From Eledone cirrhosa (taxonomy: Eukaryota): a stretch of 64,000 bases of DNA. The translations under genes and the position numbers were made by a program. The stretch lies in assembly GCA_964016885.1 (NCBI GenBank), contig OZ024743.1, positions 159,898,001 to 159,962,000 of the forward strand. Direction: 5' to 3'. The notes under the pieces were generated by a model. The model was not told the DNA's origin. It did no database searches and worked only from the letters and a program-made list of their open reading frames with translations. Below, in pieces: positions 6,170 to 62,317 of this stretch (the first letter of the stretch is position 1; every line of letters begins with the position of its first letter).

Positions 6170-6304
6170 TAATGAATGATGAAGGATGTTACATCATACA
6201 ACAATGCGATGTAAACAGACAAAGCATAAACAGTAACAAATACTCTGATTTTTTATGTATTTATTTACAAATGCAACCTATAGACAATCTAATATATATA
6301 AAAG

Positions 6305-6369
<65 letters not shown>

Positions 6370-6491
6370 TAGCTTGTCTATAGGTTGCATTTGTAAATAA
6401 ATACATATAAAATCAGTGTATTTGTTACTGTTTATGCTTTGTCTGTTTACATCGCATTTTTGTATGACATAACATCCTTCATCATTCATTA
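6170..6491. repeat. ~124-bp inverted repeat flanking a central (TA)n (tail-to-tail PLE 3' ends)
   Basis: 6170-6293 is the reverse complement of 6368-6491 with few mismatches. The right arm is contiguous with the 3' end of the minus-strand PLE. Confidence 0.85.
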
Positions 6492-9090
6492 TAGTTTACT
6501 TGAAGTCTTTTACCTTAAATGTATTTGAATATCCTTAATTTTTCGGAGGGAAGTAAAGGGGTTAATCCAGTGTTCTAATTAGCTTGCCAAGTGATGCTGA
6601 AGGAAATAGTAAAGAAATTCCATTCTATTTCTAATGTCAAAGAGTGAAGGTTAGGTTGATAAAGTGTTGCCTCTCCCTTTAAAATGGTTTGGACATTTGT
6701 GTCTAAGTGTGTGTGGGAGAATACGTAAAGGTGTAAGCATGTGTGTGTGTGTGCATGTGTGTGTGTGTGTGTGTGAATGTGGGAGGACATGTTTATATGT
6801 AAATGTGGGGGTTAGATGCTCTATCATGTTAAAACTGGTCTATGTGTGTGTGAGAGAGAATAAGTGAAGGTGTAGGCGTACGTGTGTGTGTGCGTGTGTG
6901 TGTGAGTTGGTACGTGGAGGTGTAAGTGTTGGGGCTAGTTGCTCTACCATGTTAAAAATTGGGTGTTGAGTTCTAGTCTGATATTGATTGGTGGTTGTGT
7001 TTTGTCTATAATAAGTGCTTCTTTAATTCTAAGATTGCCGAGGTTTCTTTCCTTAGATTCTATCCTAACTGTTATGTTTTTGTCGGTGTTTTTGCATCTC
7101 ACTACGTGTTTCTTAAATGAGGAAGCGTTAGTGTTGAGGTGTTCTTTTATTCTAATGTGAAGTGGTCCGGTGGTGCTACCTATGTAAAAAATGCTGCATT
7201 TGTCGCTCTCTAATCGTATACGACGTAAGCCTGGTGGCATAGGTCTGTGTTATCGATGGGGAAGTTGGCTAGCCTGCAGCGGCTGTCATGTCTGGTGGAG
7301 TGTCGTTTGGTTAGCTGTCCGCATAGAGAAGGTCCTGAGTGGGCTAGCTGGATATCTACGCCCTCTCGATTGATAACTCTGCGGATGGCTGTTGTTTTTC
7401 GTCACTGAAGCGTCGGAGCTTCAGGAAGCAGGTGTTAATGCCTCGGGTGTGGTTTCCTCTGTTGTTTCTGGCACGGTTCGCGGTGGAAGTCGGGTATGCG
7501 TTCAGTTTAAGTACTTCTAGGAAATGTGTGGTGTGTGTTTCCCGGTCTCTTGCGTCGGTGCATCTGTTCTGAACACGTGTTAGTTCGTTCCTTATGTATC
7601 CGAACTTATCGCTGACTGGGAGGGCTGATCTGAAATGTACGCACAGGTCCCTGCTGGCAGCTTTTTTATAGAAGCAGGTGTGGATGTCGCCTTCCTCTCT
7701 TATCCTGAGTTGGAAGTCCATTAGGGATAGGAATCCGCGGTCACCGGGTGTTCCATGCTGAACTTTATATTGGCGTCCATGATGGAGAATGTCATGTATA
7801 TTTTATCCGCTTCTTCACGGGATGATGTAACGATGAGTATGTCATATATGTATCGGGTTAAGAAGGTATAGGAATGGCAGCTGTTGAGGGCTCGGCATTC
7901 CAGCTAGTTCATATAAGTTATGGCCAGCAGGCCCGATAGGCTGGATCCCATGGGTAATCCTGTTGTCTGTCTGTATGTGTGGTGGTGGAAGGTGAGTACG
8001 TGTTGTCCTCTGTGAAGGACAAAAGCTGGTGTATGTCGGTCGGATGGAGGCCGTAGCAGTGGACGTCTTCTGCAACCACGCAGTCCGTCAATAAATCAAC
8101 AGCTGGAAGAGCGGGGACTGTAGTGTAGAGGGATACAACGTCGAGACTAAAGGCATATCTATTAAATTTAAGTTGCTCTGGCTGGAGTTGGTGTAGTCTA
8201 CATATGACCTCGTCGGAGCTACTGACATGCCCGGGAAAGGTGGAGAGTAGAGGCTTGAGGACCTGGGAGAGGAGCCAGGATATTTTGTATAGGTGCCCTT
8301 CTATGCTAGAGACGATGGGTCGTATTTGTGTCTTAGTACTATTCTTGTGGGTCTTGATGAGGTGATAGAAAGTGGGGGGTCTCCTATTTCTAGTTGTGTA
8401 ATTGAACTACTACAGATGTCGAACCAGATGGAGTTGGCTTATTTTTCGATCTGGGCTGCAGCTATGTCCGAGACCTCTGTATACATTTCGTTGTCGCTTA
8501 AGTGTTCAAAGGCTAGATTGCTGTATGTGGCTTGAGAGATGACACAAAACTCTTTACATTTGTAGGATGGTAAGTATATGAGTTCCCTATTCCGCAGGTT
8601 ATTCAGGGTTATTCAGAGTTGTTGCGTCCTGGAGCGGTTTGCGACTATCTTCTTCTGTTTCCGTAAGATGTTAAATACGGAATGTTTTAGCCTCGAGAGT
8701 TTCTCTTCCAGCTCGCAGTTGGCAGACGGTGGACAGAGTGGGCGGTCCAGTTGGTATATCGGGAATCTGGTTGTGTTAGACTCCGTGGTGCTGTTGTCGA
8801 GGGTCGATATCCATTTTAGTTGCTAGGCGGCCCGACAGAAATTCGTTTCTATGTCGATCCATAATTTGTCGTCCAGTCTCTGTTTCAATATGAACTTGGA
8901 ACCCAGGCTGAGGAGGTCTAGTTCATCTCGAGAGAGGGATCCTGTCAAGTCTGTGACGAAGTGTTTTGCGTCAGGTGTGTTGTTGGTCAGGGCGCCGCTA
9001 GGTTCGATGTTGGTACCGTCTTCTTCGCCGATGTTGGTGTTTAGCGTTGGGTTGTTGTTAGGACGGTCAACCGTGCTGAGTTTGAGAAAT
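6368..9090 (-). mobile_element. Degenerate Penelope-like retroelement (RT + GIY-YIG), Penelope/Poseidon-like
   Basis: ORF 6944-7240 has FYIGSTTGPLHIRIKEHL...LRIKEALIIDKTQPPIN (GIY-YIG). ORF 7356-7721 is the RT thumb (DFQLRIREEGDIHTCFYKK). Catalytic motif relic RYIYDIL near 7850. N-terminal LSRDELDLLSLGSKF near 8900. Frameshifted. Confidence 0.9.
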
Positions 9091-9778: not shown

Positions 9779-10223
9779 GTTGCCAATAAGAAACACACGC
9801 ACCAGTTGCTTTCACTCCAATTTATTATAAATTCAATTTACAAATTTAAGAATTTATAAATTTCCGGTTGGTTGGCTGGTTCCACAACCAGACGATTGTT
9901 CATATATTGTCAAAATTCTTTCGTCACACATTCTGTGACCTCTTGAGTGACTGGCGATTCTTTTCTTTGTTTTTGTGCCTCTCCTTTGTTCTGTCCTACG
10001 CCATCTTGTTTTTGCGTAGGACAGAACAAAAGAGAGGCACAAAAACAAAGAAAAGAATCGCCAGTCACTCAAGAGGTCACAGAATGTGTGACGAAAGAAT
10101 TTTGACAATATATGAACAATCGTCTGGTTGTGGAACCAACCAACCAACCGGAAATTTATAAATTCTTAAATTTATAATAAATTGGAGTGAAAGCAACTGG
10201 TGCGTGTGTTTCTTATTGGCAAC
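9779..10223. repeat. Near-perfect ~215-bp-arm fold-back hairpin element
   Basis: Arms 9779-10001 and 10014-10223, 12-nt spacer, one 13-nt indel. The left arm continues as a ~90-nt tail; related tail fragments at ~11850 and ~33490-33545. Confidence 0.92.
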
Positions 10224-10272: not shown

Positions 10273-10477
10273 AATAAATGTAATCTAAGTTTTCCGAATA
10301 TTAGTAATAACATTCGATTCGTTTGCAATTATGCAAACAAGCCTCAATTTTATAGCCATGTCAATAGAATGAACACTTCATTCTACTAACATGGCTATCA
10401 AATTGAGGCTTGTTTGCTTAATCGCAAACAAATCGAATATTTTTATTAATATTCGAAAAGCTCAGATTACATTTATT
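10273..10477. repeat. Diverged fold-back palindrome centred at 10375
   Basis: aataaatgtaatct...gaatgaa-cac-ttcattc...agattacatttatt, flanked by (TA)n. No HHR core recognised. Confidence 0.85.
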
Positions 10478-12216: not shown

Positions 12217-12246
<30 letters not shown>

Positions 12247-12247
<1 letters not shown>

Positions 12248-12716
12248 CAAAATAACAGATTAAAGTTTAAGCAAATAATTACTGCTTTCACTCTTAACGG
12301 GATCTTCTGAAACTAACAAAGTCATTCTGTGAAGGCAGAAGTAAATATTTCAAAACATGTTGCAACCGGAGGAAGACAAGAAGACGATACTTTGGTTCGA
12401 GGAAACGTTCCCTGGCAAACAACGGGAAAAAACGAAAGTAATACGTTATTATTTGGAGCGGTGAAAAACAATTACACGAACCAAAGTATCGTCTTCTTCT
12501 CTCCACCGGTTGCAACTTTTTTGGAAATATTCACTCCTGCGTTCACAGATTGACTGTGTTAGTTCCAGAAGATTCCGTGAAAACAGCGATTCTTTGCTTT
12601 AACTTTAATTTGTTATTTTAATAAATATTTGCTCTACGGTTCTTATATATTTGATATATATTTATCCTTATCGAGCCCTTTTTGGATTTTAGTCTTCAAA
12701 TTTATTATTATTACTA
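12247..12716. mobile_element. Head-to-head inverted element, family G (CAGAAGA hammerhead-like), with ~95-nt tail
   Basis: 12247-12400 is the reverse complement of 12476-12622. Related copies at 18030-18705 and 21857-22065. Flanked by (TA)n. Confidence 0.8.
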
Positions 12717-13057: not shown

Positions 13058-13302
13058 CGGATTTATATATATATATTGCTTCATCCTTCTATGTTGTTTA
13101 CTTGTCTCACTTGCTTTACGCGATTTACTTGTCCCAATAGCTTTATTTAGCTATTGCTCGCACCAACCTGAGGTATGTGATTTTTAATGAGATGAAATAC
13201 CAATGATGGTTGGAAAATCACTGACGAAGGACTATTTTTATCATATGTAACCCATTGCAACCACGCAGTATTCTTCTTTCTTCTCATGTTTATATATATA
13301 TG

Positions 13303-15668
13303 TTTTTTGACAGCGGTAAGAAATTGTTTTCTTATATCAATGTTTAACGGGCTTCCACTGATGATTTATAAGTGCCCACCTAAATATATTCTTACATGAA
13401 TATATATTAGGCTTCTACATGAACTGGAAACATTCTCCCAACTTGTAGAAAACTTATAATGAAACAATTGTTTGGAGAGAGAGATATACTTTAACTTTAA
13501 TTATATCTCATATAATAATACAACTGGTTTTTCCACATTATACATATTGTTAGCACCCCAAACACTTAAATTACGTTTATATTTTAATATAACCTAATGT
13601 TTGTAGAGTGAGATGGTTACCAGTCAGAGTTTAGCTTTAAACTATCTCTGTTATTGTATTAAATATTTACTCTTGATTGGCCAGAGGTGTTTATTTCCAG
13701 GTTCCTTATGAATTTGACTTTCCGTATTTATTACTGTTGTGAAATATTGTGGCCTTTTTTTGGTTGTAACTTGTCTGTTTTTTAGCCTAAGAAAATATAT
13801 ATATATGCCTACGTATATAATTACATGCATATATGTATTTATTTTCTTTTATTAATTGAGTTCTTTACACGAGGAATTAATATTGGTTTTGTAATAACTA
13901 ATTAACCCGCGTGTGTTTTATATTTTACTCTTAATTCGGCCAGAGAATTATATTCCCATTTGCCCTTTATAGCATAACTTTCTGCATTTACTGCGGTTAT
14001 GAGAAGCAGTTCTTATTCGGGTACAACTTCTGATTTAGCCTAAGAAAATATCTATATGCGTGTGTAATTTATACAAGCATATATTTATTTTTTTATTTTC
14101 AATTGAGTTCTTAAACACGTTGGATTGATAATGTTTTCAAAAAAACTAATTAACCCGCGTGTATATTATTATTTGTTTTCCTCATTTCGTGGATCGTGGG
14201 TTGTCTCCCCTTCCCGCTTCGTGTCGCTATGATACTTCCTCAATCAAAAACTACTGGAATTTCAAATTTGGCGGTCATTCGAGGTGAGAGAGAGCAACTT
14301 TACGGACACGATTTTTGACAGCGGTAAGAAATTGTTTTCTTATATCAATGTTTAACGGGCTTCCACTGATGATTTATAAGTGCCCACCTAAATATATTCT
14401 TACATGAATATATATTAGGCTTCAACATAAATGGAAACATTCTCCCAACTTGTAGAAAACTTATAATGAAACAATTGTTTGGAAAGAGAGATATACTTTA
14501 ACTTTAATTATATCTCATAAAATAATACAACTGGTTTTTCCACATTATACATATTGTTAGCACCCCAAACACTTAAATTGGGTTTATATTTTAATATAAC
14601 CTAATGTTTGTTAAGTGAGATGGTTACCAGTCAGAGTTTAGCTTTAAACTATCTCTGTTATTGTATTAAATATTTACTCTTGATTGGTCAGAGGTGTTTA
14701 TTCCCAGGTACCTTATGAATTTGACTTTCCGTATGTATTACTGTTGTGAAATATTGTGGCTTTTTTTTTGTTGTAACTTCTGTTTTTTAGCCTAAGAAAA
14801 TATATATATATGCCTACGTATATAATTACATGCATATATGTATTTATTTTCTTTTATTAATTGAGTTCTTTACACGAGGAATTAATATTGGTTTTGAAAT
14901 AATTAATTAACCCGCGTGTGTTTTATATTTTACTCTTAATTCGGCCGGAGAATTATATTCCCATTTGACCTATATAGCATAACTTTCTGCATTTACTGCG
15001 GTTATGAGAAGCAGTTCTTATTCGGGTACAACTTCTGATTTAGCCTAAGAAAATATCTATATGCGTGTGTAATTTATACAAGCATATATTTATTTTTTTA
15101 TTTTCAATTGAGTTCTTAAACACGTTGGATTGATAATGTTTTCAAAACAACTAATTAACCCGCGTGTATATTATTATTTTTTTTCCTCATTTCGTGGATC
15201 GTGGGTTGTCTCCCCTTCCCGCTTCGTGTCGCTATGATACTTCCTCAGTCAAAAACTGCTGGAATTTCAAATTTGGCGGTCATTCGAGGTGAGAGAGAGC
15301 AACTTTACGGACACGTTTTTTGACAGCGGTAAGAAATTGTTTTCTTATATGTTTAACGGGCTTCCACTGATGATTTATAAGTGCCCACCTAAATATATTC
15401 TTACATGAATATATATTAGGCTTCTACATATACTGGAAACATTCTCCCAACTTGTAGAAAACTTATAATGAAACAATTGTTTGGAAAGAGAGATATACTT
15501 TAACTTTAATTATATCTCATAAAATAATACAACTGGTTTTTCCACATTATACATATTGTTAGCACCCCAAACACTTAAATTGGGTTTATATTTTAATATA
15601 ACCTAATGTTTGTTGAGTGAGATGGTTACCAGTCAGAGTTTAGCTTTAAACTATCTCTGTTATTGTAT

Positions 15669-15752
<84 letters not shown>

Positions 15753-16352
15753 ATTATATTATTATTATATATTATTTTTTTTATTTCAATTGAGTTCTTA
15801 ACACGTTGGATTGATAATGTTTTCGAATAGACTGATTAACTCGCGTGTGTATTATTTTTTTTTCCTCCTTTTGTGGATCGTAGTTGTCTCCCCTTCCCGC
15901 TTAGTGACGCTATAATACTTCCTCAGTCAAAAACTGCTGGAATTTCAAATTTGCCGGTCATTCGATGCGGGAAGGAGCAACTTAACGGACACGACTTTTA
16001 ACTTTGGTAAGAAATGTTTTTCTTATATCAAAGTTTATTGGGCTTCCACTGATGATTTATTAGCGCCCACCTAAATATATTCTTACATGAATGTATATTA
16101 GGCTTCTGCCTAAACTGGAAATATTCTCCGAATTTGTAGAAAACTTATAATGAAACAATTGTTCGGAAAGAGAGATATACTTTAACTTTAATTATATCTC
16201 ATAAAATAATACAACTGGTTTTTCCACATTATACATATTGTTAGCACCCCAAACACTTAAATTGGGTTTAAATTAAAATATAACCTAATGTTTATTGAGT
16301 GAGATGGTTACCAGTCAGAGATTAGCTTTAAACTATCTCTGTTATTGTATTA
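13303..16352 (+). repeat. Tandem array of a ~1005-bp HHR-bearing monomer (starts ~13309, 14317, 15322, ~16000)
   Basis: Periods are 1008, 1005 and ~680 bp (third unit has a deletion replaced by (TA)n). CTGATGA at 13358, 14366, 15367, 16049. GAAACAATTGTT at 13461, 14468, 15470, 16152. Confidence 0.93.
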
Positions 16353-16353
16353 T

Positions 16354-16382
<29 letters not shown>

Positions 16383-16387
<5 letters not shown>

Positions 16388-16571
16388 GATGAGATTCTAC
16401 ATGACTAGAACTGTTTCATTCTTTAGAAATCATCAGGAATTCCTGATGATTTCTAAAGAATGAAACAGTTCTAGTCCTGTAGAATCTCATCTATATTAAA
16501 ACTTTTATACTCTGCAATGTATTGAGTACCTTACTTACTGTGGTTACCTCCGATTCAACACGGAATAACGT
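16383..16571. mobile_element. Family I mini fold-back element: 57-bp-arm palindrome of two outward-facing HHRs plus ~75-nt tail
   Basis: Palindrome 16383-16496 centred on gaattc. attc-CTGATGA-tttctaaagaat-GAAAC-AG-ttctagtc-CT-GTA-gaat. Copies at 58431-58623 and 59134-59326. Confidence 0.9.
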
Positions 16572-16604
16572 ATATTTATATATATATATATATATTAGCG
16601 GATT

Positions 16605-17150
16605 TAGCGAACCGATTAAGTACATACCCAACAATACTAACTCCTTCAAACATAATAATAGGAAAAGAAATAATCTGTTTCACACCCCCTTACTCTCTAC
16701 CAGTTAAAACTAATGTAGGCAAAAAATTCCTAGAGCTCTTAGATAAACATTTTCCTAGAACACATAGATACTATAATATCTTTAATAGAAACTGTGTCAA
16801 AATTAGCTATTCCTGCAGTCCCCCTATTAAATCTTATATCATCAATAAGAAAACACCCAGAGAACATCAAAATTGCTCCTGGAGGGTCAAAAGTGAATGC
16901 ACATTACAAGGTAAATGCAACACTAAAGCCATTGTATATCCGGCTAAATTGACAACCATCAGCAACAACCTACCAGCCACCAGCGAACGATATGTGGGTA
17001 TGACACAAGACAAATACAAAACGCGTTATTACTCACATGTCGCATCTTTCCGACATCCAGAAATAAGATTTACAACAACTCTGGCTAGCAGAATATGGGA
17101 TTTGAAAGACCAAGGTATTTTTCAAATATTTCACTATGTTTTAAATTGCT
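16605..17150 (+). mobile_element. PLE fragment (RT-EN linker and GIY-YIG), Neptune/Nematis-type
   Basis: Translates KTNVGKKFLELLDKHFPRTHRYYNIFNRNCVKISYSC, a Cys linker, and ERYVGMTQDKYKTRYYSH...TTLASRIWDLKD. Confidence 0.85.
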
Positions 17151-18029
17151 TTGTCCGATGAACGAATGAGGACGTTTTTCGTATTCGTTTTATTCGGGTA
17201 TCCTCTGGTAATGAGGTAATTATATTGTATTGTTTATTATACATTAAATTTAGCTCTGGTACTTACATAGAGCACTCTTCACTTCTATGACTTTTTCAAT
17301 TTTCAACGGAAACTTCAATACTTATATATATATATAGTAATAAGAATATTTATATTTATATATGTTTGATACAACTATAAATAAGGAGGGTAGTACTAAA
17401 TTGCACAAAGCCTTCCTGTATTACAGCCTCACGTTATACCCTAACGGATAGCACGATCTATACGTGGATATTTTACGTCTTGATGTGGGAGCTAAGTATA
17501 TGTTTGTTTATTCCTTTACTTATTTGCATAGGTAAGTATATATTACCTGTATGTTTTGTGAAGGTACGTATACCTTCTCGTATGTATATTTGACTGTTAT
17601 GGCGTATAATTTTTACATATTCTGGTATTTAGGGTTTGGCTATGTGTATACGGGAGTTTTGAGTCTGCGTGAGTATGCAGGTTCGTACGTATGGTGGGTG
17701 TGTGTATATGTGTACTTCTTGTTTTAGTTGACTTACGTCTCCTAACATTCGTGTATTTATATGTAGGTATGCGTGTGCGCTTGTTATATACGTATTTATT
17801 TACTTATATACGTTTATATAATTATTTATTTATTTGTACACAAGCATACACACACACACATATTTATATGTGCGTGGTTTTGTAAACCTATGGTAAGGTT
17901 TTGCGTATGCTTGTGTATGTACGTATCTGTTTGCGTGTATGTATTTATTTGTTTCTATTACTTCTGTATTGTATTTATTTACTTTGTTCTTAACTCTGTA
18001 GCGGAGATTCATTTGGTCTCCTAGTTAGA

Positions 18030-18705
18030 ATTTTAGTCTACGACTTCTGCTCACCATTTACGTGATTTTGTCTTTGCGTGCTATTGTTCTCCACGATCCA
18101 CATTTGACTTATTATCTTCGTTTTTTCGTTCATTGCCAGAGAACGTCTATATGCACCACATAAGAGAACATTAGTCTACGACCTCTTTTATACCATAAAC
18201 GTGGTTCTGTCTTTGCGCATAATTGTTTTTCACCGCTCCTATTAATGACGTATTATTCGTTTTTTCCCGTTCTTTGCCAGCGAACGTTACCACGAACCAA
18301 AGTATCGTCTTCCGGTCTTCCTCCGGTTGCAACGTTTTTTGAAATATCCAGTTTTGCGTTTACAGGTTGACTTTTTTAGTTTCAGAAGATCCCGTTAAGG
18401 GTGAAAGCAGCGATTCTTTGCTTAAACTTTAATCTGTTATTTTAATAAATATTTGTTCTACGGTTCTTATATATTTGATATATCGAGCCCTCTTTGGATT
18501 TTAGTCTTCAATTTTATTATTATTACTATATATATATATATATATAGTAATAATAGTAATAATAATAAATTTGAAGACTAATGTCCAAAGAGGGCTCGAT
18601 AAGGATAAATATATATCAAATATATAAGAACCGTAGAGCAAATATTTATTAAAATAACAGATTAAAGTTTAATCTGTTAAACTTTAATCTATTATTTTAA
18701 TAAAT
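18030..18705. mobile_element. Family G element (plus, HHR-like at 18378-18428), then (TA)n and an inverted copy of its tail
   Basis: 18424-18530 is the reverse complement of ~18555-18670. Internal ~138-bp diverged duplication starting tagtctacgac at ~18034 and ~18172. Confidence 0.8.
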
Positions 18706-23059: not shown

Positions 23060-26000
23060 TATATGTATGTGTGTATGCTTGTATGTATGTTATGTATGTA
23101 TTTATGTATGTATGTATTTATGTATGTATGTTCTTCTGGCTTTATAATTTCACAAATTTTTGCAAATACAGAGAGAGTCGGTTTCTACATAGATACAAGA
23201 TTCTCGCATTGGAATTTACACAACAACTAGGTAGATATGTATGCATGTCTGCATGAATGCATGTGTGTGCCGGTATGGATGCTGTTGTATGTGTGGATGT
23301 GGATGTATTGAGTTATATGTGTGCATGTGCATATGCTTTATATCTGTACAAGTGTATATACAGTTATTAGCTGCAGAATTGTTGGAATGTTTTACATATT
23401 TTTACTTTTCCATTAATGGATTGTACTTGTATTTTCCTAACTAGTTGTGTTCTTTCTGTTTCTGTGAAGCCCAGCTTCTCAAGATTTGTACTGAGGTAGT
23501 TACTAACATATTCCAGTGCCCCAATTCTCACAGGCATAAATCTGAAGGTATAGTCAGGTTGGAGTATCAGTAGATTTCTCATCAGTTCTGCATCCTTTTC
23601 GCTAATATTTAATATTATATTGGCATCTACTGGGGAACTAACTTCCACTACTGAGTATGCCTTCTTTTCCCTGTCCCATATGATTATATCAGGTCTGTTA
23701 TATCTGCACTTTATTTGGGTTTTACACTGGAACATTCCATCAGTACTCTTTCATATTATGCATATGTATGTTTTCCATATTGCTGTAGCTTTTAATGTGT
23801 TTAGTGCCGGGGCTATCTTTTCTACGGATTGCCTTGTACAGTGTTTTGTCCACTAAATCATGCCTCATAGGTAGATAGTACCGTGATGCCATCTTTGGAC
23901 AGCTGCTTATGACATGGGGGACATCTTCGATGTTAATTCTGCAGAGTCTGCAATTGTCACATCTAAGTGCTTTGCCTGCATCCCTATCTCTTTTGTCAAT
24001 CAGGTATTTCGTGTAGATTTCCTGTTCTCTGATTGAAAAAGCATATCCTTCAATGTGGGAGAAAATATAGCAGTTATTGGTTCAACATAGACTGCTTTGC
24101 TTATGTATATTACTCTCACTCTGGAGCTTCATCGCAACATATCCATGCATGATATTTTTGCTGATAAGCATGCAGTTTTTCCTCCATGGATTCATTCCGG
24201 TACTGCTGAGCAATTTCCTTAGGTGTAATGTATTGATTATCATGCAGGGAGTATCTTTCAAGAAGTTCCTTCCCAACTCTCATGATCTTATCTGTCTCAT
24301 GCAGATAGACTTTCTCAATAGATGGGCTCCTACGATTCGAGGTTTAAATGTTGTCAGAGGGATATGATGCGACACTCAAAGGCTGCCTACCTGCTTACGT
24401 TTCAAGTAGAAGTGGTCTATGTCATTGTTGACGTGGAATTTTCCGGTGTTGTTTAGAATTTGTCAAGTTTTAACATTAATTGCTCGAATTTCGCCTATCG
24501 TTCAATCGAGTATTCCAAAAGTTAGTGTTAGGACAGAAACACATTGTGAGCCACTGTTTTATTGTGCGCAGAGAGTTCTGATGTCCATATTTTCTTAATC
24601 GGGTGTAATATTCCCTGGTTATGCGTTCTTTATTACAAATACCATTACAGGATATATTCTCATCCATCTCCAGGTACCTGTGGCAGTCTTCGTCAGATAT
24701 AGGGGAAACAGTTAGTCTATTGTAACAATGTTGCTCGATTGGTTTGTTGTTCTTCCCCACTTTAGAGTCATATTTCAACATTTCTCTTGACCTGGTTACA
24801 ACATTCTCAAAGGATATAGGAATGGAAATTTGTATATCCTTTGAGAATGTTGTAACCAGGTCAAGATTTTTCTTCGTCCCATTTATGTTCTTGGCACAGA
24901 GCTTCAGGTCATCCACAAAGAATTAAGGGTTAAGTTCGTATTTCTGACTTCCTGTTAGCCAATGATGTATACTTCTCATTTCTTGGGCAGAAACGACAAG
25001 GTATTTAATGACAGGATATATAGTAGCACAGAGAGTCTGTCCCCTTGAAATATACTCCTGTGATATTCTATTTTATCAGTGAAAATAGAGTATTCGTTCT
25101 TCTCTGATTTTAAATTTAGGATAAGAAGAAGACAGCTTCTCTATGGCTCTGATAATAATGTCTGGGACTTTAGCAAGTCGGAGGGCCTCTATCATCCAAA
25201 AGTGGGGAACAGCATTAAAGGGTATCCTGTAGTCCAGCAAGACTGTAGCCATATTCCTCCTAAGGTGTCGCACTTCTGACATTGCAGTTTTGTTGATTGT
25301 GAGTTGTTCAGCACAACCCCAACTACCTTTCCAGCTGCCTGTTCATCTGTGATGATGTTATTATTTTCACAGTGACAGTGGAGGAATCTGTTCAGTCAGG
25401 CTGTATACATCTTATGCATCAGGTTCTGGCATGCAATGGGTCGGTAGTTTTTTGCCAAGTGGGTGTATTTGTTCTTGGGGACTAGTAATGTTTGTGCTAA
25501 TGTCAACCATTCTGGTATAAGTGTACCTCTCTTAAGCACTTGTTGGTAGAGGTCAGTAAGATACCTCCGATAGAATATCAGTAGCCGGCAATCATGTCTC
25601 TTCCTGGTGTTTTCTTATGATGGAGTTTTCCTGTCACAGTCTCAAGGGTATCCACATATATTTCGTATGTATTTGTTTTAGTGTAGAGCAATAGTTCTTT
25701 TGGATTTCTTTTAACCCCACTGCATCTTGGTTGAAATCCTTCTTTTCACCCCATATTTTCCACCAGAAGGAATCTATGTCTTTCTGGGATGTGGCCTCAG
25801 TGTCATTTATTACTTTGCCCTTCATATCTCTATAGACTGATGTTTGGATTCGTCTGAATCTTTTATGAAGTACTTTTCTTTCATCTACCTTCTTCAGGCA
25901 TCGGCGTTTCTCGCTGACAGCTCTCACTTTTTGTTTGAGGGTGATCAGCTTATATTGTATAATTCTGGTTGTACTGTCACCAAACATCGTTTCTATTTTA

Positions 26001-35582: not shown

Positions 35583-35628
35583 CAAGTGTGTGATTACAAC
35601 CCACGACCTTTGAATCGCGGATCCATAA

Positions 35629-36420
35629 TCACACGAATCCCTTCAGGGACCGTAGCAAAAGGCACTCAACTAGGTTAGCGGACCTGGTGTGGGACCTGAA
35701 AGACCAAGGCACTCCGTACGTCCTGGAATGGAGTATCGTTCGCCTTGCGAGAGCATATTCGGCTGGAAGTAGAAAGTGCCAATTATACCTACACGAATCC
35801 ATGAAGATAGTCAGACTGAAAGATGACGCGGTCAACCTGAAGTCTGAAATTATCATGACATGCAGACACCAGAGAAGGTGCACATTTGCAGCGTAGAATC
35901 CTCCGGGTGGCACGGGCCAGGGGCATGGGACCGGGTACGCACAGACCCGAACGACCCAACAGGATTATGGGACCTGACGCCATGCCCTGATGACATTGTG
36001 CGACCGGTGTGGCAAACATAAGTAAACCAGGGTGCGCACCTGACCGAGCACGCAACATTGGGCAGGTACATCGCCTAGGCCGAGACAGGCTAATATGGGG
36101 TCTACGGTCGTCCGGTCCAATATCCCAAACATATAGAACAGCCATGGCATACCCCATGGTGACCGGGACAATCGTCCCTTTGAATGTGTACCCCGTCAAT
36201 CGTGACTATATACTCTCCACATGTCCCACTTTGGAACAATTATTATTACTGCTATTATTGTTTTGTTATTGTTACTTGTTCCATATACGTACCAATGTTT
36301 GAACCTCATACTACCTGTGTGTAGTATATCACATGGATACACGCACCTTCTCCTGTACCTCCCTGTCCGTTTTTTATTCACCCGTCTTTTATTTATCTAT
36401 TTGTGAAGTTACATACAGAT
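35629..36420 (+). mobile_element. PLE GIY-YIG C-terminal fragment and 3' UTR
   Basis: WDLKDQGTPYVLEWSIVRLARAYSAGSRKCQLYLHE...LKSEIIMTCRH (ORF 35687-35896). Confidence 0.8.
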
Positions 36421-43693: not shown

Positions 43694-44540
43694 CGTCGTG
43701 GGATAGTTAAACGTACGGCTTTGTTTGACTCAACAAGATGTTTCCATAGTTATGCAGCGAGTTCGCGGTAATTTCTATGCAGGTTATACTTGGAATAATA
43801 ATAGTTAAAGAAAGAAGAAGAGTAACAAGGTCGGCTGTTCAATAAGGGTTTTATTTAAAGTACTAACAATTGTTTCGTTGATCAGGTGTGTCTAGAGTTC
43901 GATAATCGTTTGAGGTTGCGTAAATCTATCTCTAATACATTGTGTACCACTGGTCAACACATCAGAGCACGTAGATATGAGAATGGTTCACTCGAGGCAA
44001 GACTTATATAGAAACGTAGCGTAACACCTAGACAATAACATCAATAATAAAATAGCGTATAATTAAAACAATAACATCAATGGTAAAACATGTATGGTAA
44101 ATAGATAGAGCAGTTATATTATTTTATTATAGATGTTATTGTCTAGGTGTTACGCTACTCCTCTATATAAGTCTTGCTCGAGTGAATTATTTTCATATCT
44201 ACATACTCTGATGTGTTGACCAGTAGTAGCAATGTATTGGAGATCGATTGACGCAACCTCAAGCGATTAACAAACTCTAGACACACCTGATCAACGAAAC
44301 AAGTGTCAGTACTTTAAATAAAACCCTTATTGTACAGCCAACCATGTTACTTTTCTTCTCTCTTTAACTATTATTACTCCAAGTATAATCTGTATAGAAA
44401 TTACCACGAACTCGCTGCATAACTATGGAAACATCTTGTTGAGTCAAACAAAGCCGTACGTAAAACTATCCACGACGCGGTGTATTTAACTGGATTACCT
44501 CTAACTGGATTACCTATAACGATACCATGTTATCCCATAT
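43694..44540. mobile_element. Head-to-head inverted pLTR pair (~360-bp arms) with expanded-stem-II HHRs and ~60-nt tail
   Basis: Arms 43694-44054 and 44120-44477. HHR tact-CTGATGT-gttgaccag...ctgatcaac-GAAAC-AAGT-GTC-agta at 44204-44311. Ends at a long (TA)n tract. Confidence 0.88.
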
Positions 44541-45479: not shown

Positions 45480-48290
45480 ACCAAAATATACGGTAGTGTC
45501 CAATCCGTATGAAGAACTCAATGTAATCCAAATATCATGAAAAGAGAAGATACATTCAAAAATGTTCGATGAAAATCACAGGAAAACAGAGTCAAGATAA
45601 ATTAATAAAAACAATGAATAAAAACAAAGAACAAGTTCCTTATATTAAAAAATCCATCATTTTACGATCGTTTCTAGGATATATATGTGTGTTGGTATGT
45701 ATATCATATAGATCTATGTAAAAATATTACAAACTATCAGAGGAAATATACATACCTTCACATATATATGCTGACTTCAGAAATAATTGTTTCTACTTTA
45801 AGCACAAGGCCAGCAATTACCCAGAGCATTACTGGTAGTTTATTCTATCGACCCCGTAAGGATGAAAGGCAAAGTCAACCTCGGCGGGATTTGAACTCAG
45901 ATCGTAAAGGGACGTAACTATGCTGGAAAGCATGGCGTCCGACCCTCTACTGATACTGCCAATCCACCGCTCAGAAATAATGAGATTTGTTTATTGAAAA
46001 AAACCAACAAAGATTTAATATAATAGATCTGTTTGGGAACAGGTTTTGAATTGACCAATAGAAAAGTAGTAAGAGGTCAAGTTGATAGAATAGTAGTAGT
46101 AGAAATTTAATTTAGGGGTAGAGGAATGCAGACTTATGTTTTGAATGGAAAGAACTCTTTGAATGAAAAGAATACTTTGGGGATGAAAAGAGGTCAAGCC
46201 GGTGAAGGGTACACGAACACTTGATGTTATTAAATGAATAATGTTAAAAACGAAGGAGAGTAAAATTTTAGGGTAAAGGTATTAGTGAGAAATAACAATC
46301 TTATTTAAAACACAAGGAATTTAGATCTATAACAATAAATTAAATTAATTGATAGGTATACTTATAGGGATAAATTTATATTAATTCATATGAATTTGAT
46401 AAATAAAAATTAGATGTTATTAAAGAATGTTGTTAAAAACGAAGAAAAATAAAATTTTGGGATAAGTGTAGTAGTGAGAAATACCAATCTTATATAGACT
46501 ACAAGGAATCTAGATTCATAACAGGAAATTAAATTAATTTACATGTATAGTTTTAGGTATTAATTTTAGGAAAAGAGAGCTGTAAGAGGGAAATAAGATT
46601 ATGAAGTTCTCTGTAGTAAAGTACTAATTATAGGTTAACTAAATAAAAAAAACTAATTATAATAATATGTAAAATATAAGTGTAAGGTGTATATTAATTA
46701 GGTTTATAATATTTGAAAGTTCTTCTAATTCTATGATTGCAAGATATAATTAATTTTTGTCGCTTATTTAATAGGATATCCTTAGATTTCATTATTTCAA
46801 CAAGTTCCTGGGAGCATAATCTACACTCATATCTGTTATTTTGATAAGGGGTGGCCCTTTTGAGCACACTCCAGGTCAGGTTGTAATCGATATTCTTTTT
46901 TCTATAATTATTAATTGTTTCAGCCAAGGATGTTGTATTAGCTAATGCGGCATTTTTTAAACTATTGTGGGTATTAAATCTTACTTTAAATTGGTTAGAC
47001 GTAACTCCTATATATGAATAAGTTGAGTCCTTAGTGCTAATTTTACATTTATATACTATTTTATTAATAAGACAATTTCCCTTTAATGGGCAATTTCTTT
47101 TGTTTCTACAGTTACAACCATTCGTGAATATTATATCAGAGGAGTTAGTCCAATTTGGTGTGAAATTTACTCGACATGCTATAAGTGAAAGAGATGGTGT
47201 TTTGTTGCGGTTTATTTTAGTATTATGGTTGGTTTGGTGTGTTGGTGGTATATTCGGGGTTATATTACATGTATATGCGTTGTACGCACTTATATTTTGT
47301 TGTATATTTTTGGTAGTGGAGTAGGAAAATTTGACAGTTGATCTATTTAAAATTTGATGGTATTTATGGTTTGGCGGGAAGTTTTTCTCTAGAATAGGAA
47401 AAAGTTTTTTAGCGATATTATCTTTAATTTGTAGATTAAGTGGATCATTATACCAAGTAACTCGTCTATTACGGTTTCGATGTTGTTTTTTTTATATTTA
47501 TACGATGTATCAGGATGTTTACTAAGAGAGTTAGTATTAGTGCATTTATTATATATAGGTTTAGTTAGATTAACTGATGTAGGTGTTTTAGTCTGATTAT
47601 TAGGAATTTTGTTAGTAATGTTATTGGAGTATTAGGATGATTGGTTTTTTGAAAGTCATTATATTTTATGTGAGAAGAGGTAGATAAATTAAGTTTTAGG
47701 TTGGTATTTTGGGGTGTAGTGTGAGTGGCATCTATGTGTGTGTTTTTCATTTGTTGTTTGTTGGTAATATTGTGTTTTATGTTTGAAGTATTATTGGTGC
47801 AAGGTATATAGACTAATTTGTTTTTGTGGCCGCTTTTAGCTAAAGCTTCGTTATAAAAGGGTGTATTTTTATCGAATACATCCTGTTTAGATGAAAGGTT
47901 AGAAATTCTGAGTGAGATATTATATGCTAGGTTTTTAAGAATAGATCTAGGGTGATTGGATTGTGAGTGTACGTAATGTAAGTTTTGGTTAGGTTTATGG
48001 TAAGGTTGGTAGATACCCGTAGATAAGTCTAAAGTTATTTTGCTGGTGTTTTCAAATGTAATAGTGAGATTATAATAGTCTTTCAGGAAAGTTCTAATAA
48101 GTTTTTTTATTTTTTTCAATTTCTGATAGGCTAAGATTAGTGGAAAGAAGAAGACAGTCGTCACGATATAAACCACCTTTAAGGTGGAGAAAAGAAGAAT
48201 TTATAGTAGAAATACGCCCACAAGATCGGTAATTTGGGCAGAATCACTAGAACCCATAGTAATGTCGAAGAGATTACTATATGTATTTCT
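45480..48290 (-). mobile_element. Degenerate PLE (RT C-half, Cys linker, GIY-YIG, 3' UTR with HHR at 45658-45785)
   Basis: FDITMGSSDSAQITDLVG, YQPYHKPNQNLHYVHSQSNHP, CNCRNKRNCPLKGNCL, YIGVTSNQFK, CRLCSQE. ~190-bp tandem duplication in the 3' UTR (46224/46413). Confidence 0.9.
45788..45970 (-). mobile_element. SINE with 11-bp TSD overlapping an HHR core
   Basis: TSD tcagaaataat at 45777-45787 and 45971-45981. Confidence 0.9.
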
Positions 48291-48619: not shown

Positions 48620-51600
48620 CAATATTATGCCTATGAACTTCACCTCATGAACATGATAAACGAAACCAAATTCAAAAAACGAACGCATCACAACAAACTG
48701 CAAAATAACATCGATGCACTACTAAAATAATTGCGTAACACCAACGGTATTATAGTTAAGCAGACAACACATAAAATGTATACAACATGAGCCTTAATAC
48801 ATACAACAACTTTATACGGCGGGAATTACACAAAAAATACAAGAAAACTACAGAATCTACATTCAATAGCATTAATAAAGAAGGACTTAACATAGTAAAA
48901 TATCTGATAGAACCGAATCTCTGACCCCTTGTAAACCCACTTTTAATTTAAAAGATCATAAATGCAACTTCGAAACTGACCCTACTATTAGATTATTATG
49001 CCCATTAAAATCTGATATAGGCAAAATTAGCAAGTATATACTAAATAGAATAATACCAGAAATTAGGGAAATCTACTAATTAAGCTTTGGGGTAACACTA
49101 ATGAAGCAATAGATTGGTTTAGCAAATTAGACAATAAGGAATCTTCCAACTTCATACAATTTGACATCAATGACTACTACACCTCTATTTCCCCAGTCCC
49201 ACTAAATAAGGCATTAACATTTGCAAAACAAACTCTGACAACAGATGAAATTAAAATAATACTAGCTGCTATAAGAACAATCATTAGGTTCGATAATAGT
49301 TACTGGGAAAGAAAAAATAGACAAAATAACTTTGATATCACAATGGAATCGAACGATTCAGTTCAAGTAACGGACATAGTCGGAATATATATAGCACATA
49401 TCTTGCATAAGGAATTTGATAACCTAGAAGGAAGAATTTATAGAGATTACTTTTAGCTAAAAGCCTAAATAATCAAAACTTGGAAAGATTACGTAAAAAG
49501 ATTAGAACAATCTTCAATAAATTAGGCCTAAACATCACTTTTGAACTCAACTCTAAAAAAGCTAACTTCTTAGATGTGTCACGTAACCTAAACACAGGAC
49601 TAATAGAACGATTCCATAAAAATAACGAAAATCTAGCCTACATTAGTTATAACTTAAACCACCCTCGCTCCAAAATTAACTCCATAGCACATAGTATATC
49701 CCTTAGAATTTCACGCTTATCTTCTAATACAAAGATTTTTAACGAACACGCTAACTACTACAACATAGCTTTACTCAAGGCAGGCCATAAAGAGAGGCTT
49801 AAATACAAACAATAACAACACACTTAACAGAAATAACACTATCCACACCTATAGAAAAAGCAAATCTAGGACTAAACATAGAAATTGGCAACAAGCACTA
49901 GAAATAATTGAACCGAATACTAATATAAGGATTACTAGAAACTATAGAAGATGCAGAGATAGAAAATACTAATGGTTCAATCCAATATTTAAATCCTCTA
50001 TAAAAACCAAACTACCTTCTACTTTCTTTAAATTAATTGACAAGCACTTCCCTAAACATCACAAATACCATAAAATCTTTAATAGAAATACTATCAAACT
50101 ATCATACTCTACTGCCACCAACATAGAATCGTACATATATAAAATTAACTATAAAAGAATATCTAATACAAATAGCCTGCAAACAAGCACCATAACACCA
50201 AATACAAAACACAAAAAAATAACAACATCACAACCAAAGCACACGTCAGAACACATCACGACAATACATCAACAAACCCAATTCTCAGCCCATACATAAC
50301 ATACAAAACCGTATCGCGGAATCGGCACATAGGAAAGCATTAAAATGTAACTGTCATTTACCTGATAAATGCCCACTACAAAAGAAATGCCTGGAGTCAA
50401 ATATAGTGTACCTATGTACTATAAATTCAGGCAACTTAGCATGGCACTACATAGGTTGGACGGCGCGGGAGTTCAAGAAAAGATGGTATGTCCACAGACA
50501 CTATAAATAACCGTAAACTTATGAACACAACGACGCTTGCCAATAAAATATGGCAGCTCAAAGATACAAACCAGGAATACAGAATTAGCTGGGTGAAGTT
50601 GTCAACGTCAATAGCCTATAGAATTGGCATGTCCCATTGTAGACCTTGCAATATGCAATTATTCCATATTTTAAAATATAACAAAATGCTGCTTAACAGC
50701 AAAATTAACGAACAATTTTCTGTAGACATAAAACGGCGATCAAATTCAATAATTTTAGACCAACTTAATTCATCCCATCTATTCCATAATTCAAATTGTA
50801 CCACCTGGATCTATTATAATAACCTATTATTGTTATTATTGTCATCAACTGTCAAAGAACCAACATCATAACCTTTTATATTTTATATTTTCTCTCCTTC
50901 ATTTTCTATCTTTCTATTTCTTTCCCTATATTTATTTCATCTCTTACATTATATCTTATCGTATTATTTTCACTTCTAATATAACTTACAATTAATTAAT
51001 TACTTATTTTATTTATTTATTAATGTAACTAATACATACATGAATATATTTAACATTTTCATGTTTATAGCAACATATCTCTATATTTTAACCACCAACA
51101 CCATAACTACTCTCAATAATCTTACTAGGCGGTGGATTGGCAGTATCGGTAGAGGGTCGGATGCCATGCTTTGACGCATAGAGCTACGGCCCTTGCCATT
51201 CTGAGTTCAAATCCCGCCGAGGTTAACTTTGCCTTTCATCCTTACAGGCTCGATAAAATAAAGTACCAGTAATGCACTGGGTCATTGCTGGCCTTGTGCC
51301 TAAAGTAGAAACAATAATCTTACTATGTTTACTTTTCTTCCCACACATATAACATTTTTTTATAAATTTGTTTATTTAATTTTATCATATTTTGTATTGT
51401 TTTTTTATCATCCTTGCTCTAACTTGTTTATTAGCATTTATTCATTTATTGCTGTTGTCTTTGTTGTTGTTTTTCTCTCTGTTTTTCTTTTTCTTTTTCT
51501 TTATCTTTTATCTTTGTTCTTCATCCTTTTCTCTTCTTTCTTTTTTCTCTCTCTTTCTTTATTAATGATGTTGTAATTTGAATTCGTAAACGCTGAGCAT

Positions 51601-51807: not shown

Positions 51808-51934
<127 letters not shown>

Positions 51935-51984
51935 GTATATTTATATATATATATGTATGTGTGTGGGTTGGTGTATAAAAAAGA

Positions 51985-52372
51985 AGAAATTAAAAGATGG
52001 TTAAAAAAGTTCCACATATTTTATTATGCGTATTTCGAAAACAACATCATCCTGGGACAAAAATTGTGTTCTCATCAGATAAAATAAGGTAGCATGATAT
52101 GAGGTCTAAAAGCACTTGTGTTTTTAGTCCTCATATCATATATATATACTTGTTTTTAGGCCTCATATCATGTTACCTTATTTTATCTGAGGAGAACATA
52201 ATTTTTGTCCCAGGATGATGTTTTCGAAATGCGCATAATAAAATGTATGGAACTTTTTTAACCATATTTTAATTTCTACTTTAATATATATTCCAGTTTT
52301 ACCAACAGTTGAGTGCTACTTATCTGATATATGCATAGTTTTATTGTTCTACAATATTACTCACCTCCTACA

Positions 52373-52375
<3 letters not shown>
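51985..52375. mobile_element. Fold-back element with two outward HHRs (52018-52085 minus; 52180-52244 plus) and tail
   Basis: attttat-CTGAGGA-gaacat...atgttttc-GAAA-TGCGCA-TA-ataaaat. Arms ~51985-52110 and ~52153-52277. Confidence 0.88.
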
Positions 52376-52447
<72 letters not shown>

Positions 52448-52884: not shown

Positions 52885-55288
52885 AGGGGATAACAAGTTA
52901 TCGTTATATGTAATCCAGTTAGAGGTTGTGAGTACACTGTATTGTGGATAGTTTTAACGTACGGCTTTGTTTGACTGAACAACATGTTTCCATAGTTAGG
53001 AAGCGAGTTCGCGAGAATTCCTATGCAGGTTATACTTAGAGTAATAATAGTGAAAGCATGAAGAATAACATGGTCGGCTGTACAAGAAAGGGCTTTATTT
53101 CAAGTATTAACAATTGTTTCATTGATCAGGTGAGTCTAAATGCCGCTAATCACTCGAAGTTGCGTCACTCGACCTTCAATAAAGTGTTTACCTCTGATCA
53201 ATTCCTCAGAATACTAGAGAACACACATATGGCAATTGTATATACAGCGTAGAATCAAAACTATAACATCAGAAATGAAATATAATGATAAATAGGTAAA
53301 GAAGTTACAGATGTAAAAAGTAAAAAAAATAAAAAAATAAGTAAAAGTATATAAGTACAGAATGCGATAGTAGTGGTAGTGAGTAAGTGTCTGGATAAAG
53401 ATGTGGGGTGGAGGTAGTACTAACATGAAAAGCAATATTCGATACATACATACATACGTGTAGAGAATAAGAGGAAGTAACAAATGACAGATAAAACAAA
53501 AAACAATAAATTCAAAATTAAGTGAGAGATACGAGCATGAGACATGAGGGCTAAGGATGGATGCTGAAGGGGGATTTTGATATATGTATGTGGTAAATAA
53601 TTGGCCCGCTGATTGTCTTATCTTTATGGGATTAATGTGGCTCCAGGGAGAGAGAGTGAAAGAAAGGTTAGGAGATTTATGATCTAGTGACCAGTCGGTT
53701 AGTTAACAGCTAATAACAGTGTGTTGATATGTATTCCGTACGTTAAAATTCCGGTGGTTCAGTTCTAATTTTTGGATTGCTGGGTCGAATCATGATGGTT
53801 TGAAATTTGTAGCTGCTTTGTGCCTACAGAAAATTGATCTTTCTATTTAGTTGTTGAGCAACATCTTATCGTACCTTAAAATATGGAATAGTTCCATATT
53901 GCAAAGTCCGCAGTTGGACATTCTATTGCTGTAGGCCCTTGCTCCCGATAATTTTGACCTGCTAATCCCATATTCCTGGTTTGTGTTCTTAAGCTGCCAG
54001 ATTTTATTGGCCAGCTTTGTAGAGTTCTCCAGTCTACGGTTCTTCATGGAGTGTCTGTGAACATACCCTCTTTTTATGAACTCCCCAGCCGTGGAACCTA
54101 TGTAATGCCATGGTAAGTTGCCTGAATTTATAGTACACAGGTACACCATACTTGAATCCAGGCATCTATTTTGTAGTGGGCACTTATCCGGTAGGTGGCA
54201 GTTACAGTTGGAGGCATTCCTGAGTGCAGGTTCTCCGTTGCGGTTTTGCATGTTGTTATCGGTGGGTTGAGATTTAGGCCTATTAATGTTTTGTTGTGAT
54301 GTGCCCTGATGTGTGTGTGGTTGTGGTGTTGTTATGTGTTTGCGTTTTGTATTTTGTGCTATGGTGTATGTTGGTAGGTTATTTTCTTTAGAGATTATTT
54401 TGTAGTTGATTTTATGTATGTGTGATTCTATGTTGGCTGCAGTAGAGTAAGATAGTTTGATAGTTTTTTCTGTTATAGATTCTATGGTATTTGTGTAGTT
54501 TATGGGAGTGTTTGTCAAATAGCTTAAAGAATGTAGAAGGTAGTTTAGTTTTTATAGCGGAGTTGAATATTGGATTGAAACATAAGTATTTCCTATCTCT
54601 GGATTTTCTATAGTTCCTAGGGGCCCTTATGTTAGTATTCAGTTCAGTTATTTCTGGTACTCGTTATCTAATTCTGTTTAGTCGTATGTTTATTATTTCT
54701 ATAGGTATGGATAGTGTAGCTGTCGTTAGGGCTGTTGTTGCTGTCTCTATCTGGTATGTATATGAGCCCCTCCTTATATCCTGCCTTATGTAAGCTATGT
54801 TATAATAGTTTGTGTGTTCGTTAAAAATCTCTAGGTTAGAAGATAGGCGCGATATTCTGAGGGATATACTATGTGCTGTAGAGTAAATTATGGCTCGTTG
54901 GTTAATAGAGCCCTTCCATAAAAATAACGAGAATCTAACCTACATTAGTTATAACTCAAACCAAACTCTATAATCAGTTTTTCTGATGATTGGATTAAGC
55001 ATACATTGTATTTAAAATTGAGTCGCACAACTGCAAGTGATTAGCAATTTTTAGACAGCTTAATCAATGAAACAATTGTTAATACTGTAAATAAAACGCT
55101 TTTTGTTATTCTTCACTCTTTCACTATTATTATTCCAAGATTAACCTGAATAGAAATTCACAGAACTCGCCAAATCACTACCTAAGGAAACCTCTTGTTG
55201 AGTCAAACAACGCCGTACGCTAAAGCTATCCACAATACGGAGTATTCACAACCTCTAACTGGATTATCTATAACGATAATTTGTTCTC

Positions 55289-57125: not shown

Positions 57126-59455
<2,330 letters not shown>

Positions 59456-59693
59456 ATATATACACACATATGTATATATATATATATATTTATGTATTTA
59501 TATATATTATATATATATATATAAATATATATAATATTAAGGATACTATTCATGGCTATGTATATACTAAAACCTTTTATAGTTATATATATTTTAAACC
59601 CTAAACAGTGAAGGTCAGTCATTTATTACTACCTTATTACCAGTAAGATAAATAGCTCAATGTAATAACATCAATTGTTCTACAGAGCAGTTA

Positions 59694-62132: not shown

Positions 62133-62317
62133 TAGGAACCAGTAAGACCCCGACAGCTGAGCTCAAGCCGTTTCGACGGCTAATTAGAATTAGCCGTCGA
62201 AACGGCTTGAGCTCAGCTGTCGGGGTCTTACTGGTTCCTATTACCCACTCTACTACCTCAAGTATTGAGTACTTTGGTGCGTTATGGTCCACCTGGTACC
62301 TTACCACATTTCCTTCG

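Follow-up and report, generated by a model that had tools for sequence, protein, structure and literature searches.

Short head-to-head hammerhead fold-backs in Eledone cirrhosa as likely minimal insertions of Penelope-like retrotransposon ends

Insertions of Penelope-like retrotransposons (PLEs) with an inverted pLTR, junction palindromes and a one-sided tail are already on record in the accessible text of Arkhipova 2013 (PMC3846280), where self-priming was proposed from the palindromes at the inverted pLTR junctions and where a TATA box was located 20 bp before an initiator-like motif in rotifer pLTRs. The general PLE layout, including a 30–40-bp tail and targeting of (TA)n, is given in the Fig. 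2 legend of Craig 2021 (PMC8557442), and the accessible part of that source calls the way in which tandem and inverted PLE ends form unresolved. For the Anolis Poseidon element PAc, the available portion of Frangieh 2024 (PMC11167929) describes nicking and extension of both target strands in vitro, reverse transcription (RT) that begins on uncleaved RNA at two internal sites, which delimit the tail, and a ribozyme which cleaves only with protein; inverted repeats are not derived there from dual priming. Minimal hammerheads of Schistosoma PLEs form opposite-strand pairs 100–700 bp apart, and G10.1–C11.1 is called highly conserved (Cervera and de la Pena 2014, PMC4209133, accessible text).

Here, we describe an element present in three copies in a 64-kb stretch of Eledone cirrhosa DNA, the whole of which is referred to as the window. 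As far as the accessible descriptions go, it shares with the insertion unit of EN+ PLEs the head-to-head inverted copy, junction palindrome, one-sided tail and pLTR hammerhead, as well as a variable target-site duplication (TSD), an AT-rich or (TA)n target and a TATA about 20 bp before an initiator-like motif. It differs in lacking an ORF between the repeats, with a total length of 183–190 bp, and in its tail of 74–79 nt, the described tail being 30–40 nt (PMC8557442); moreover, our junction data favour two joined cDNAs over the self-priming reading of that unit. The type I motif, short stem I, palindromic loop III core and mostly ORF-less truncated copies are also found in PLE minimal hammerheads, whereas the window cores lie only 6–13 nt apart and have U·U for G10.1–C11.1 and a 4-bp stem III. 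The long end of PAc lies about 120 nt from the core ATG, compared with 125 nt in the window family. The PAc ORF starts in the ribozyme, whereas the core ATG of the window element reaches a stop after five codons, and PAc belongs to Poseidon, whereas the linked relative described below is of Neptune type and carries its ribozyme 3′ of the ORF. Retrozymes of the non-LTR (animal) kind (bioRxiv 10.64898/2026.07.22.740005, accessible part) are likewise non-coding and pLTR-derived with a type I hammerhead; they are tandem, whereas the window copies are head-to-head, though the family also yields a 78-nt head-to-tail tandem form. Coral CMITEs were considered as prior art and set aside as piggyBac-type and unrelated (PMC2872659, accessible text). 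The layout is known and the element itself is ordinary. Neither a dual-priming origin of PLE inverted repeats nor a tail hairpin was described in the accessible text of the literature found, a search with subscription papers and Repbase outside its scope.

Copies, ends and hammerhead motifs in the window

The following features were located.

16388–16570, plus strand: copy 1, 183 bp
58432–58621, minus strand: copy 2, 190 bp, with three non-native apex bases and a short-arm substitution at 58607
59135–59324, minus strand: copy 3, 190 bp, arms identical, in the next tandem-repeat unit after copy 2
57884–59457, plus strand: host tandem repeat of copies 2 and 3, period ~700 bp including the element; carries a second hammerhead family
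16374–16387, plus strand: likely TSD, left copy, 14 bp, in a (TA)n tract with a TTT interruption; identical to 16571–16584
16571–16584, plus strand: likely TSD, right copy, matching 16374–16387
16388–16439, minus strand: tailless (short) arm of copy 1 with inverted hammerhead motif; a substitution at 16402 breaks stem III
16437–16442, no strand: apex GAATTC of copy 1, zero loop, four native bases per arm, 2-nt self-complementary AT overlap
16439–16486, plus strand: type I hammerhead motif of copy 1 (structure descriptor match)
16439–42 and 16482–85, plus strand: stem I; 16443–49, core; 16450–61, stem II (descriptor)
16462–65, plus strand: GAAA; 16465–68 and 16477–80, stem III; predicted cleavage after A16481 (descriptor)
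16492–16570, plus strand: tail, on one arm only, its first five nucleotides (TATAT) in microhomology with the (TA)n target where the short arm ends
16509–16527, plus strand: tail hairpin motif RCTC-TRC-loop-GTR-TT-GAGY (motif comparison)

By sequence alignment within the window the three copies are 95% identical. Their arms are 56–57 bp long, and they differ by a 7-nt apex indel, a substitution in the tail (16560) and, in copies 1 and 2, a single short-arm substitution apiece. These two short-arm substitutions (16402 and 58607) fall on the equivalent position of stem III, where the new bases differ, and each is the sole arm substitution of its copy. Copies 2 and 3 lie in neighbouring units of the ~700-bp tandem repeat, the flanks of which are 96% identical (57884–58365 versus 58650–59134), and most likely represent one insertion event. 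The original prediction had listed three copies; these were found, but on this reading the window holds two independent apexes rather than three. Empty (TA)n sites are present in inverted sister units of the host repeat, at about 57325–57373 and 57794–57845. Copy 1 was received by the (TA)n tract at 16350, one of two long tracts of this kind (the other is at 15670) that close the units of a tandem repeat with a ~1 kb period (13302–16352).

The same one-sided tail of about 75 nt that had been reported for all three copies was recovered, measuring 74 nt after the TATAT microhomology and 79 nt counted from CATC. Short arms start and tails end at identical bases in copies 1–3, at two unrelated sites. 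The predicted fixed outer end therefore stands within the window but not family-wide, since sequencing reads show tailless ends also at 59199 and 59202–3, 9–15 nt beyond the end of the window copies. The 14-mer flanking copy 1 occurs within 20 nt of the tract end in 4 of 51 AT tracts of the window, both flanks of copy 1 included; the pair is likely a TSD, coincidence being possible but not likely. The flanks of copies 2 and 3 are compatible with a (TA)nCA duplication, which is ambiguous since they are pure microsatellite.

All three copies have an inverted adjoining 5′-truncated copy in head-to-head arrangement. The head-to-tail tandem units with same-strand hammerheads that characterize non-LTR retrozymes were not seen in them, nor were the inverted repeats at both ends and fixed TSD of class II MITEs, the ends being asymmetric and the TSD of variable length in the metagenome families described below. 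We consider these stubs likely PLE insertions in the previously described layout of inverted pLTR plus tail, in its shortest form. As predicted, the apex differs between insertions: the arms of copy 1 are joined without a loop, via a self-complementary AT, whereas copies 2 and 3 have GAATCA-G-TGATTC, with a 3-nt insert of non-native bases relative to the native upstream sequence obtained from read loose ends.

The hammerhead had been called fully canonical. This is borne out by the CUGAUGA core, the GAAA, the 4-bp stem III ACAG/CUGU and the GUA, but not by stem II, which opens with U·U at position 10.1/11.1 followed by merely 3 bp in place of the canonical G10.1–C11.1 and a stable stem. Rfam reported no hammerhead at gathering score and none among 144 weak matches on 57200–59500, which are miRNA-type hairpin models. 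The type I descriptor returned eight strict sites in the window, five of them within the element, and none in each of ten block shuffles. Stem I of copy 1 has 4 bp. Minimum-free-energy folding did not recover the hammerhead fold, which in a model ignoring the core has −2.6 kcal/mol, 3.4 above the minimum of −6.0 kcal/mol. Variation in reads is concentrated in loop II (59248–51), positions 10.1/11.1 are absent from the best 40 of 75 variable sites, and the read loose ends include a subfamily in which both stem I strands have changed together (compensatory). The reads thus support selection on the hammerhead structure of a motif whose self-cleavage is predicted. A transcript across the element is modelled as one hairpin of −92 to −104 kcal/mol which buries both motifs and is predicted to lock both ribozymes in a duplex of 52–55 bp. 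Since the two motifs lie head-to-head on opposite strands, no monomer would be excised.

The family in reads and metagenome contigs

The read survey used 59133–59275 (one arm plus apex) as query in four of 14 listed runs, the best of which have 32% of sampled words in common with the window and may derive from the same or a related species; none of the 14 is an RNA data set, which has no bearing on expression. Matches amounted to 5618 raw reads in run X12 and 8322 contigs in run X1. Depth falls sharply after 59267; reads that continue beyond this point most often enter a single native upstream sequence (744 reads). Since most reads run into native upstream sequence, the fold-back appears as a minority form of a large, high-copy family of PLE ends. 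Opposite-strand joints were found in at least 194 reads from at least 29 start places in X12 and in at least 28 contigs in X1; hairpins may be under-sequenced, and some of these joints could be library chimeras. Read ends adjoining (TA)n cluster at 59137–45 (tailed) and 59202 (tailless). The 78-nt tandem form is represented by 77 reads with 16 starts, and its downstream unit begins ~14 nt upstream of the core.

Metagenome contigs were scanned for two head-to-head cores with a 12-nt stem II and 4–34 nt between the cores, which yielded at least 117 loci. In the matches listed, 87 of 117 are true palindromes, and the 30 non-palindromic ones were left out; seven more palindromes with less than 80% ungapped arm identity were excluded, and the remaining 80 form 19 families. 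Five (sub)families with 56 of the listed loci were scored, leaving 24 loci in small families unscored, and five of the 56 were removed: L037 (a duplicate of L035), L030 and L040 (palindromic flanks; they would have counted as short-short and long-long), L090 (degenerate) and L093 (complex). L072 and L085 may be one locus. Family 1 (L073, L052, L068) has two alternative sequences upstream of the ribozyme.

Among these listed matches, a tailed arm is paired with a tailless arm in 31 of 31 loci with both arms callable (of 51), and short ends fall within about 4–10 nt per family, as do long ends. TSD-like matches of at least 10 bp, ranging up to about 20 bp, flank 19 of the 22 listed loci tested, at least three of the 19 being pure simple repeat, versus 2 of 98 mismatched pairs. 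Family 0a shows 20 distinct apexes in 25 listed loci with near-identical arms, so that the apex was likely made at insertion. The pattern of a fixed outer end and a variable apex, and the view that the apex is made anew in each insertion, thereby extend to the metagenome families listed. That arms share private mutations, in contrast, does not hold in the window (none shared, two arm-private) and was observed in the listed metagenome families only: 28 within-copy variants are common to both arms versus 1.4 expected in 39 loci, 13 of them from one divergent locus, and family 0a alone has five versus 0.06 expected (0 of 5000 permutations). Unshared arm differences occupy 58 positions in the same 39 listed loci.

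Whole-arm similarity of the window element reaches 35 against a shuffle maximum of 30 for family 0a and 36 against 34 for 0c, and there was none to the window's other hammerhead families. The ribozyme pattern of the window family had no match in metagenome and viral contigs, nor the family 0 pattern in viral contigs. The tail hairpin motif is present in 26 arms of families 0a, 0b, 0c and 4 among the metagenome matches listed, with no match in 145,116 control bases; its covariation score was equalled by 58 of 500 shuffles in an alignment of 8 rows only, in which MAFFT misplaced the window row. The tailless end lies ~6 nt 5′ of this hairpin in families 0a, 0b, 0c and 4 and at the 59202–3 end of the window family, and 12–17 nt 5′ of it in the window copies themselves. 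The hairpin is a candidate cis-element for RT initiation. A further match to the motif, at 6941–6975, overlaps in antisense the end of a remnant of a Penelope/Poseidon-like ORF (6944–8406, minus strand) and may be a chance match or a clue to orientation.

Neptune-type ORFs and neighbouring repeats

In L119, and similarly in L118 and L120, a PLE ORF encoding a cysteine linker and a GIY-YIG domain has family 0c at its 3′ end. The ribozyme of L119 lies on the sense strand, 129 nt downstream of the ORF stop. From its motifs, with tblastn used in addition, we take the ORF of L118–L120 to be Neptune. Pfam GIY-YIG was not matched by either of two pieces of L118 and L119. An ORF-linked copy of the window's own family was not found, and the upstream motif is absent from the window; the Neptune link of the window family comes through its relative 0c, which has the tail motif and the layout in common with it. 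The three loci L118, L119 and L120 represent eukaryotic-type PLE sequence on two contigs of a bacterial MAG record, likely host carry-over, and L120 has an internal ORF inversion. In L074 (1–1346), another Neptune-type ORF remnant, with a hammerhead of its own at 989, is closely followed downstream by an inserted 0c fold-back.

In L119, TATATAA is located 26 nt before an initiator-like A, which is itself 12 nt from the core. Among the matches listed, 10 of 30 arms of the 0b and 0c fold-backs stop exactly at this A and none beyond it, though the pattern allowed it, and a uniform-truncation null gives 7e-5 for the seven listed loci of 0c. If the start is read from the motif, these arm ends suggest that the apex marks the RNA 5′ end. 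L118 is a mild exception, the 15 native bases matched by its tailed arm extending past the proposed start.

The surroundings of the window copies include related sequences.

16601–17161, plus strand: Neptune-type PLE ORF remnant (thumb-linker-GIY-YIG region), E 3e-15 to 46697–47491 and E 1e-25 to the L119 ORF
62132–62318, plus strand: sister-family fold-back of ~187 bp with the same layout, its apex inside stem II, the CUGAUGA half missing, and a tail hairpin at 62247

The remnant at 16601–17161 had no Pfam match, and it was ruled out as the element's own ORF, lying beyond the TSD. Pfam GIY-YIG was detected below the cut-off only, in 2 of 10 PLE remnants of the window. More PLE ORF remnants are found at 46694–48200, 49067–50871, 53847–54551 and 35594–36205, and the Atlas position of 46697–47491 is near eukaryotic GIY-YIG clusters. 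The apex of the sister-family fold-back, inside stem II, indicates that cDNAs can stop within the ribozyme.

The host repeat (57234–59457, 1118–2074) has its own hammerhead family in inverted and tandem arrays, with cores at 1833 (plus), 57551 (minus) and 58134 (plus), a minimal ACUAGU stem III and a pyrimidine or C·A mismatch at 10.1/11.1. A third hammerhead family at 51831–52444 has canonical G-C at 10.1/11.1 and head-to-head cores at 52078 (minus) and 52187 (plus), separated by about 110 nt with a TA-rich junction. Palindromes without a hammerhead descriptor match, most of them adjoining (TA)n, lie at 9779–10223, 10273–10477, 12240–12628, 18422–18672, 24785–24866, 43694–44477 and 6170–6491.

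Origin of the inverted arms

As we read these sequences, the fold-back is rather probably the shortest Neptune-type PLE insertion in (TA)n, consisting of an inverted tailless pLTR end, a pLTR end and the tail, and likely made in situ from two head-to-head cDNAs. An RT/GIY-YIG protein from an autonomous copy elsewhere would nick both target strands 10–20 bp apart. RT would be primed by one strand at the tail end (distal site) and by the other about 6–17 nt 5′ of the tail hairpin (proximal site), in both cases on uncleaved RNA. Both cDNAs would extend to or near the RNA 5′ end, which would lie about 12 nt before the ribozyme core, and their 3′ ends would be trimmed and joined via short self-complementary microhomologies or small inserts. 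Two cDNAs, one per nicked strand, would account for the constancy of both ends, for the TSD and for the variability of the join, while the constant pairing of a long and a short arm together with the shared variants suggests that one RNA or one RNP serves both primings. The product, without an ORF and TATA box, is probably a dead end. In L1 twin priming, the second target strand primes a second cDNA, and a join through microhomology results in an inversion. The likeness is partial: L1 cDNAs copy different stretches, whereas here the same stretch would be copied from two fixed starts. Two further determinants of the apex were considered and rejected: a splice acceptor AG upstream in the window family, seen as a motif only, and a cap-derived extra G, which occurs in L101 and family 0a and is missing in 0c.

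The original prediction invoked snap-back self-priming, a form of the self-priming proposed in PMC3846280, by which a tail-primed cDNA ending just past the ribozyme folds and serves as its own template up to the point of joining with the target. The stop of such copying could be set by the TATAT microhomology where the short arm ends in the window copies, and the shared within-copy variants of the listed metagenome loci are expected under it as well. This model requires that the tailed arm keep at least three more native bases than the tailless arm. Among the matches listed, which represent other families and come from short-read assemblies, in which contigs often break off at palindromes, the difference between tailed and tailless arm was symmetric over 48 apexes (17 values below zero, 10 at zero and 21 above), with orientation resting on one arm in 19 of the 48. 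Classified accordingly, 11 of these 48 listed apexes fit snap-back with microhomology and a loop of at least 3 nt, 11 more could be accommodated with untemplated inserts, several of which are copied from the arm itself, nine have no loop, and 17, with native bases only on the tailless arm, are impossible; the native upstream sequence for 0a and family 1 is a majority vote, and some impossible calls may be later point mutations. The 29 listed apexes with both arms called divide into seven that fit, eight that need inserts, four loopless and ten impossible. Furthermore, the upstream sequences on the two arms of L073 (1224–1254) differ, and the arm of L118 that reaches ~530 nt into the endonuclease gene is the tailless one. 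Neither window apex fits microhomology snap-back without untemplated bases, and the 3′ base of the modelled window cDNA has a predicted pairing probability of at most 0.04. Tailless ends are also found in L119 and L120 without a short fold-back, so the proximal end needs no hairpin. Snap-back may hold for a subset of events; as the route by which the hairpin is generally regenerated we consider it unlikely, and probably wrong for most events.

A preformed palindromic master could instead be copied whole, with apexes changing later by deletion or repair at the centre and gene conversion keeping the arms alike. Palindrome centres are known to be unstable, and some of them may have eroded after insertion. 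Loss of 7 nt between AT repeats would turn the apex of copies 2 and 3 into that of copy 1, minority alleles of the family such as T at 59189 are common to all three window copies, and certain apexes recur among the matches listed: one 15-mer is present in seven of the 25 loci of 0a and one 17-mer in four of the 15 loci of 0b/0c. However, the recurrent apexes coincide with a built-in near-palindrome, a natural joining site, and no apex is dominant: that of copies 2 and 3 has a depth of about 8, versus about 1900 just before the apex, in X12. The distinct apexes of the 25 young 0a loci listed vary in the length of native sequence that they retain, and the fold-backs lack the TATA motif found in ORF-linked copies, which together make a copied master quite improbable. 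Small size, high copy number, a palindromic body and a TA-rich target would also suit a class II MITE or a fold-back DNA transposon with a chance hammerhead-like motif. This explanation is largely refuted and very improbable, given that the one-sided tail leaves the ends without mutual inverted repeats, that TSD length is variable among the metagenome matches listed, and that in a relative the same arm and tail run on into a GIY-YIG PLE ORF. The postulated retro mechanism for MITE-like palindromes is upheld in this respect by the PLE origin and, among the matches listed, by the TSDs and shared variants. Illumina libraries can generate fold-back reads, and 2 of the 56 listed metagenome loci had palindromic flanks and were left out as suspect. 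An assembly or library artefact is nevertheless hardly credible for the element, as the flanks differ on the two sides and carry TSDs, substitutions private to one arm occur, the long and short asymmetry is constant, and joints occur both in contigs and in the raw reads of a run from 2026.

Returning to two head-to-head cDNAs, we tentatively propose, as a possibility to which we give somewhat less credence than to the origin of the element itself, that PLEs make strong-stop-like cDNAs from both nicked strands, that a tail hairpin conserved among distant Neptune-type families fixes the two sites where these begin, and that the apex would map the RNA 5′ end. Both ends and the junction of these fold-backs fit into one read, and with thousands per genome they offer a direct readout of PLE end formation. 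Their junction statistics argue against the published self-priming and tie the genomic pattern to the two RT starts and the two-strand extension observed in vitro. Moreover, such hairpins can be misfiled as MITEs. If the proposal is true, the inverted repeats and tails of PLEs would generally arise by dual-strand priming followed by end joining, and many of the MITE-like hairpins in invertebrate genomes would be retro products.
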